NCBI RefSeq assembly: GCF_054482595.1
Contig: NZ_CM137008.1
DNA length: 64,000 nucleotides
Reading direction: 5' to 3' (one strand)
This document shows positions 18,051 to 18,363 of the stretch, piece after piece. A program made the position numbers and the translations under genes. Below the pieces are notes generated by a model. The model did no database searches. It was not told the origin of the DNA and was given only the letters and a program-made list of their open reading frames with translations. Every line of letters begins with the position of its first letter. The stretch's first letter is position 1.

Positions 18051-18363
18051 AAGTATGCACACGGGCAGCACGACGCTGCCCGATTGCTTTCTGGTTCAGA
18101 ATAATTCGTCCTACTCATTCTTCCTCCCCCTTTTTTAAATACTTTTTCATCTTGTTTCGGACTGTCATGTAATTCGCAAAACGAAGATAAATGTGCTAAT
18201 CCATCCCATGGAATATCGCCACAATAAAGCAGGTAATTTTTTGATTTTTACGCCATGATAGAAGTCTGGAAGAAAAAGGCTTTCTGCGATCACAGTCGAG
18301 CCGGGCGGGCCAGGCCAAATGCTAAAATAAGCACAATTTACTGACTCATTTTGAGGTAACGCT

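Follow-up and report, generated by a model that had tools for sequence, protein, structure and literature searches.

The yaeI-Less dapD–yaeH Spacer of Escherichia coli: A Natural Majority Haplotype Probably Derived from a Decayed Two-Gene Cassette

The dapD–yaeH Locus and Its Spacer

The stretch of DNA analyzed here (64,000 nucleotides of contig NZ_CM137008.1, assembly GCF_054482595.1; hereafter, the window, whose positions are used throughout unless another record is named) harbors a site of variable content delimited by the genes dapD and yaeH. The genes and longer open reading frames (ORFs) around this site are as follows:

13667–14461: map, from the ORF listing and the sequence
14523–17195: glnD, from the ORF listing and the sequence
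17226–18050, plus strand: dapD, a 274-aa ORF, left anchor of the variable site
17839–18138, plus strand: 99-codon ORF, out of frame in dapD and running into the spacer (ORF listing)
18165–18398, minus strand: 77-codon ORF (ORF listing)
18364–18750, plus strand: yaeH, 128 aa, Pfam DUF3461, right anchor of the variable site
3′ of yaeH: cdaR, degP and dgt on the minus strand, from the ORF listing and the sequence

The product of dapD, tetrahydrodipicolinate N-succinyltransferase, displays 99% amino acid identity to K-12 DapD, and the annotation of this gene is carried by the identical strain XH990; yaeH is 100% identical between the window and K-12 at the nucleotide level. The spacer between them (18051–18363, 313 bp) lacks yaeI, in agreement with an earlier reading made from the sequence only: K-12 YaeI used as a tblastn query had no match in the entire 64-kb window (E ≤ 1e-5), and no ORF between dapD and yaeH encodes a homologue of this phosphodiesterase (NCBIfam NF008460, Pfam PF00149 Metallophos). 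The same sequence-only reading described the 77-codon frame as the sole ORF of at least 60 codons in the spacer; the frame is there, but it is not alone, since the 99-codon ORF enters the spacer from the dapD side. It also saw no sign of engineering, which was borne out: the whole window is free of FRT and loxP sites (34-mers searched with up to 6 mismatches, 13-bp arms with up to 2), and the spacer is free of lambda att-like sequences and of flanking or junction repeats.

The following features were recognized within the spacer:

18062–18082, plus strand: putative dapD terminator hairpin, CGGGCAGC-acgac-GCUGCCCG, with 8 pairs (7 of them G-C) and a 5-nt loop
18086–18193, no strand assigned: 108-bp segment specific to the yaeI-less allele, 36% G+C, with no K-12 counterpart and no traceable origin
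18194–18244, plus strand: relic of the 3′ end of an orf236-family gene, reading C, stop, SIPWNIATIKQVIF, stop, against CEPVPWGIARIKQVIF, stop, in the intact gene; the in-frame TAA lies at 18197–18199
18245–18363, plus strand: cassette-type yaeH upstream region (yaeH promoter and ribosome-binding site), common to yaeI-bearing alleles

The putative dapD terminator hairpin, correctly recognized in the earlier reading with coordinates one base off, belongs to a 45-nt stretch (18051–18095) with a folding energy of −21.3 kcal/mol (z = −4.4 vs. shuffled sequences). Its tail reads AUUGCUUUCU in the window vs. AUUUUUUUG in K-12; with 5 U in 8 positions, the former passes a simple terminator scan but is interrupted, unlike the unbroken run of seven in K-12. 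Judging from the sequence, the hairpin is intact and its U-tract interrupted, and the yaeH upstream region is likewise intact. An RpoD holoenzyme site has been reported in the yaeI–yaeH spacer of K-12 (PMC3946193); a scan of 17900–18500 for sigma-70-like promoters returned no site.

Comparison with E. coli K-12

In the K-12 reference (an MG1655-derived record, L001), the dapD–yaeH spacer is 1027 bp long instead of 313 bp and does contain yaeI, as stated in the sequence-only reading, and the net difference of 714 bp conforms to its estimate of roughly 0.7 kb. The K-12 gene (813 bp, L001 1905–2717) encodes a 270-aa product assigned to Pfam Metallophos and to the NCBIfam equivalog “phosphodiesterase YaeI”. 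The orientation had been given wrongly, however: yaeI is not divergent from yaeH but co-directional with both dapD and yaeH, as is evident from the L001 annotation and from Table 2 of PMC3946193, where the yaeH/yaeI spacer is listed with both genes leftward. The flanking genes, their order and orientation, and the terminator hairpin itself are the same in K-12 (MG1655/W3110) and in the window.

In a global alignment, identity to K-12 stops at 18085, inside the T-run following the terminator, and restarts at 18214, from where 148 of the 150 nt up to 18363 (98.7%) are identical. Between the two blocks, 128 bp in the window (18086–18213) stand against 842 bp in K-12. The difference between the two spacers is, hence, a replacement and not a clean 0.7-kb excision. 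The notion of a simple deletion relative to K-12 has to be abandoned also in view of the relic of orf236 (see below), of which the window retains 16 codons and K-12 about 11: an allele that keeps some 20 nt more of this gene cannot derive from the K-12 arrangement.

Distribution of the Two Alleles in E. coli

The population set comprised 5426 complete E. coli genomes, with the locus present in 5424 of them. The 128-bp segment was found in 3338 of the 5426 genomes, invariably as a single copy at the dapD–yaeH locus (with coverage of at least 80% in 3337 of these carriers), and the K-12 yaeI segment in 2084. The two states, adding up to 5422 of the 5424 locus-bearing genomes, are thus essentially complementary; the window represents the majority allele (61.5%) and K-12 the minority one. 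The yaeI-less spacer is, in other words, an ordinary natural presence/absence polymorphism, and one already documented: in PMC5422975, yaeI figures among the accessory orthologous groups and shows enrichment in phylogroup A. The short allele occurs, e.g., in O157:H7, O55:H7, Nissle, ST131, SE15, and O121:H19, and yaeI in K-12, W3110, BL21, O111:H8, and O145:H28.

The alleles of O157:H7, O55:H7, Nissle 1917, ST131, SE15, and XH990 repeat the structure and the junctions of the window, XH990 being 100% identical to it across 17700–18700; other short alleles depart from it only in point differences and in small indels in a C/T-rich tract. Identity within the short allele ranges from 93.8 to 100% over the 128-bp segment, and an alignment of 12 alleles displayed identical junctions to the shared terminator and to the yaeH upstream region. 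Since both the short and the yaeI-bearing alleles are diverse, the polymorphism is old and not strictly bound to phylogroups.

It was also considered whether yaeI had been removed in the laboratory, had been lost recently in this strain alone, or is missing through an artefact of assembly. Nothing beyond the difference from K-12 speaks for such an event; its probability is practically negligible, and the population counts refute it. No FRT, loxP, or att scar is present, the same junctions recur in 3338 complete genomes that were assembled independently and come from human, animal, food, and water sources, as well as in another Escherichia species, and the diversity of up to ~6% within the allele marks it as old. 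What was initially taken for a peculiarity of one genome is therefore shared with 3338 of 5426 E. coli genomes and with Escherichia sp. E1V33.

The yaeI gene itself is unusually divergent in E. coli, its identity to the K-12 sequence being 94.3% in BL21, 93.5% in O145:H28, and 86.8% in one genome. An IS1 element interrupts yaeI in strain 1506.

As most E. coli lack yaeI, no strain-specific event calls for an explanation, and the import of the finding for wider biology is small. Still, it shows that the K-12 gene order is not the default at the dapD–yaeH site and that differences from K-12 are to be compared with the population before they are named deletions.

The Site in Other Enterobacteriaceae and the yaeI–orf236 Cassette

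A scan of species-representative genomes for YaeH yielded 80 loci, 77 of them from outside Escherichia; E. fergusonii, E. marmotae, and E. ruysiae were absent from the retrieved loci. In none of the 77 non-Escherichia species loci was yaeI found near yaeH. In 75 of these, dapD was present as well, and the dapD–yaeH gap was ~110 bp long in 72 of the 75. In the loci inspected, this spacer was unrelated in sequence to that of Escherichia, with another terminator and another motif upstream of yaeH. Citrobacter, Klebsiella, Enterobacter, Raoultella, Kluyvera, and other genera resemble the window in lacking yaeI and in possessing a short spacer with a dapD terminator and a yaeH promoter, but differ in its length (~110 bp), in the terminator (AAAAAGCGGG..CCCGCTTTTTTT), in the motif TTTTCGTTAATTATTCA, and in having no relic of orf236.

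Two of the outgroup loci carry other ORFs in the dapD–yaeH spacer: a 762-aa molybdopterin-oxidoreductase-like ORF on the opposite strand in Enterobacter wuhouensis (L055 961–3249) and a 57-aa lipoprotein-like ORF in Enterobacter sp. BIGb0383 (L063 3119–3292). Given this differing cargo in other genera, the site seems to have received insertions repeatedly.

Within Escherichia, yaeI was present in E. albertii, E. whittamii, and the E. coli representative. The genes of E. albertii and E. whittamii are 82–84% identical to K-12 yaeI at the nucleotide level, while the dapD and yaeH of these species differ by 5–10% from those of the window. Escherichia sp. E1V33 carries the same 313-bp short allele next to a dapD only 90.9% identical to that of the window. 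In Escherichia sp. MOD1-EC7003, a second gene, an ORF of 236 aa (orf236), lies 14 nt 3′ of yaeI. The same arrangement, dapD–yaeI–orf236–yaeH, was found in E. coli GF43 (one of the 5426 genomes), in E. albertii strains, in Pseudocitrobacter cyperus, and in some enterobacterial contigs. In the cassette-bearing P. cyperus, both the terminator and the region upstream of yaeH are of the cassette type, the latter being homologous to 18245–18363 of the window but unrelated to the ~110 bp found in genera lacking the cassette; other Pseudocitrobacter species carry the usual short spacer of ~110 bp.

The product of orf236 (WP_157916455.1 in GF43) is an uncharacterised Cys/His-rich protein of 236 aa with a confidently predicted fold (pLDDT 86, pTM 0.85) and without detectable relatives in Pfam, NCBIfam, PADLOC, or PDB. 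Membership in its family was judged by an intact ORF of ~235 aa with the motifs TCSxC and FHxxHCH and the C-terminus EPVPW.

The orf236 Relic in the Window Spacer

The spacer of the window contains no intact ORF of the orf236 family; only the last 16 codons are left, with the in-frame stop indicated above. This relic is colinear with the C-terminus of orf236 and matches it at 11 of the 16 codons. It lies within a contiguous DNA homology to a cassette locus (L014), which extends over 18194–18363 (90.6% over 170 nt, E 2e-64), and a profile derived from the sequences of six complete cassettes matches the spacer at positions 1–42, i.e., the terminator, and 146–319 (182 bits). The window spacer, therefore, combines cassette-homologous flanks with a colinear relic, as a decayed haplotype of the cassette type should. 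Compared with the full cassettes of the E. albertii strains, GF43, MOD1-EC7003, and P. cyperus, it shares the terminator, the yaeH upstream region, and homology to the last 51 nt of orf236, but lacks all of yaeI and ~660 nt of orf236; the spacer of L014, 1707 bp long, exceeds it by roughly 1.4 kb. Conversely, the 108 bp of the window (18086–18193) are absent from every cassette.

The last codons of orf236 are encoded by the stretch preceding yaeH that is retained in all Escherichia alleles. The C-terminus EPVPWGIA(K/R)IKQVIF is conserved in orf236 homologues at 55–61% identity, and its EPVPW core is kept even in those at 34–38% identity residing in unrelated contexts: beside a relaxase, beside a WapI-family gene, or in a 4-Mb genome far from dapD. 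Since this C-terminus is kept far from dapD and yaeH, the spacer segment must derive from orf236 and not the reverse. Thus, both the K-12 yaeI–yaeH spacer and the window spacer retain the relic of a second, unannotated gene, which points to a decaying two-gene cassette.

These data bear on the view that the absence of yaeI is ancestral, i.e., that E. coli was at first devoid of this gene, an insertion brought it into the K-12 lineage (phylogroups A/B1), and the window is primitive. Most Enterobacteriaceae do lack yaeI between dapD and yaeH, the yaeI-less allele prevails in E. coli, and no yaeI ancestry can be detected in the 108 bp. Nevertheless, this view is improbable. The ~110-bp spacer of genera lacking the cassette is not related to that of the window, which has its terminator and yaeH upstream region in common with yaeI-bearing alleles and includes a degraded 3′ end of orf236, whose C-terminus is an intrinsic feature of the protein family. 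The presence of yaeI in E. albertii and E. whittamii at the identity given above means, in addition, that the gene is at least old in the genus. The sequence-only reading left the choice between a deletion and ancestral absence; its first option survives in the form of a secondary loss, and the second does not fit the relic and the cassette-type flanks within Escherichia.

The 108-bp Segment and Its Small ORF

No meaningful plasmid or phage source was found for the segment 18086–18193; its apparent “plasmid” matches were megabase-sized, mislabelled chromosomal records. Several identities were tried for it and rejected. A mobile or repeat element was ruled out by the single-copy state of the segment in every genome and by the lack of a plasmid or phage match. 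As to a remnant of yaeI, blastn and tblastx of the 128 or the 108 bp against four cassettes gave just 12–14-nt matches (E > 0.1). The best local alignment of the 108 bp to yaeI or orf236 scored 15 vs. 12.6 ± 1.3 for dinucleotide shuffles, a score reached by 23 of 300 shuffles; 8% of shuffles equalled the weak colinear matches to yaeI nt ~125–160. With an nhmmer profile of the cassette, the 108 bp yielded no match when searched on their own and one of −2.7 bits within their context, so the cassette-remnant identity is unsupported. Finally, no Rfam family was found over the spacer above the threshold: the sroE match (21 bits vs. a gathering score of 51) fell on the terminator hairpin and was ascribed to chance.

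One small ORF overlaps the segment:

18118 to 18047, minus strand: candidate 23-codon ORF with GGAGGA 4 nt before its ATG; its stop overlaps the dapD stop

Its start is kept in 11 of the 12 short alleles, including that of E1V33, and lost in strain BS-04. Seven of the 23 codons vary, mostly non-synonymously, and the purine tract upstream contains indels, whereas the core TTGTTTCGGACTGTCATGTAATTCGCAAAAC is nearly invariant among the sampled short alleles. No gene was called in the short spacer in nine public short-allele assemblies or in two annotated short-allele RefSeq records. In view of the non-synonymous variation and of the start loss in one allele, the ORF was judged unlikely to be a gene, and it is probably non-coding.

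A functional role of the spacer, in which the 108 bp would encode a 23-aa protein or a small RNA, or modulate dapD termination or yaeH expression, and would be kept by selection, is very improbable. The strong Shine–Dalgarno-like GGAGGA, the retained start codon, the nearly invariant core, and the terminator U-tract unlike that of K-12 are compatible with such a role; the pattern of codon variation, the indels of the purine tract, the missing start in BS-04, the lack of gene calls, the sub-threshold status of sroE as the sole Rfam candidate, and the negative scan for sigma-70-like promoters argue against it. As to annotation, 18194–18244 should be recorded as a pseudogene fragment and the spacer should carry no called gene.

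Proposed Origin of the Window Haplotype

Overall, the window very probably represents a natural yaeI-less haplotype, the commonest one in E. coli, which arose by the decay of a two-gene accessory cassette. In a comparison covering about 100 loci, the combination of an unrelated ~110-bp spacer elsewhere with the cassette-type flanks and the orf236 relic here argues for secondary loss and against ancestral absence; we infer the direction of the change from these relics and flanks. The cassette haplotype comprises its own dapD terminator, yaeI, orf236 14 nt further downstream, and a stretch of ~118 bp upstream of yaeH, and it occupies the site of the unrelated ~110-bp spacer found in most Enterobacteriaceae. 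Three states of it coexist in Escherichia. The full cassette is rare (E. albertii strains, E. coli GF43, Escherichia sp. MOD1-EC7003). In the K-12-type state, with yaeI only, orf236 would have been deleted save for roughly its last 11 codons. In the state exemplified by the window, neither gene persists: the last 16 codons of orf236 are left, and the 108 bp stand in place of the rest.

What weighs against this origin is that no cassette sequence explains 18086–18193, so that the loss was not a simple excision, and a replacement by foreign DNA is conceivable. Nor were any intermediate alleles found, e.g., a truncated yaeI adjoining the 108 bp.

The interval from the dapD stop to the yaeH start behaves as one exchangeable haplotype. 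Its alleles were probably swapped between lineages by homologous recombination via the conserved dapD and yaeH flanks, this mode of spread being deduced, like the direction of loss, by comparing sequences.

YaeI Function and the Significance of Its Loss

YaeI is a metallophosphoesterase with a Tat-type signal. In K-12, the yaeI gene has been named a member of the sigma-E (rpoE) regulon (PMC5105897), and transposon insertions in it were enriched among the survivors of a phage T7 screen (PMC7414163). It is dispensable, as most E. coli live without it; for the window strain, in which the search of the 64 kb and the population counts speak for the absence of yaeI, the functional consequence would be the loss of a non-essential phosphodiesterase.

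A broader reading is conceivable, although it is speculative and rather unlikely to be correct as a whole: the site could be an accessory locus exchanged by recombination, the original cargo of which was a functional module of YaeI and Orf236. The lone yaeI of K-12 and the scar in the window would then be stages in the decay of an envelope-related system, and the 108 bp might have a regulatory or small-ORF role.

Mosaicism in the Neighboring Genes

A tract of dapD stands out from the rest of the gene in comparison with K-12:

17750–17900, plus strand: mosaic patch in dapD, 29 substitutions in 151 bp vs. K-12 (19% divergence)

Outside this patch, dapD differs from that of K-12 by 0–2%. The substitutions are nearly all in third codon positions, and the only amino acid changes are V190I, R213K, and I222V. 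The region 17745–17905 is at least 99% identical in only 23 of the 5424 E. coli genomes (the window and 22 others), which have the patch at 100% identity, and 80–90% identical in the remaining 5401; the closest match among the 80 species loci is Raoultella sp. BIGb0138 (89.8%). The patch was probably imported from another enterobacterium and looks like a short tract of interspecies recombination situated ~150 bp from the variable spacer.

In the 3′ part of glnD (16660–17060), 100-bp bins with 8–15 mismatches vs. the E. coli loci L087, L088, and L089 adjoin bins with 0–3, suggesting that recombination mosaicism continues upstream of dapD. On the other side of the site, the yaeH–cdaR spacer (18751–18838) is 88 bp long in the window and in most loci, and 53 bp long in some E. 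coli loci (L086, L087, L092).
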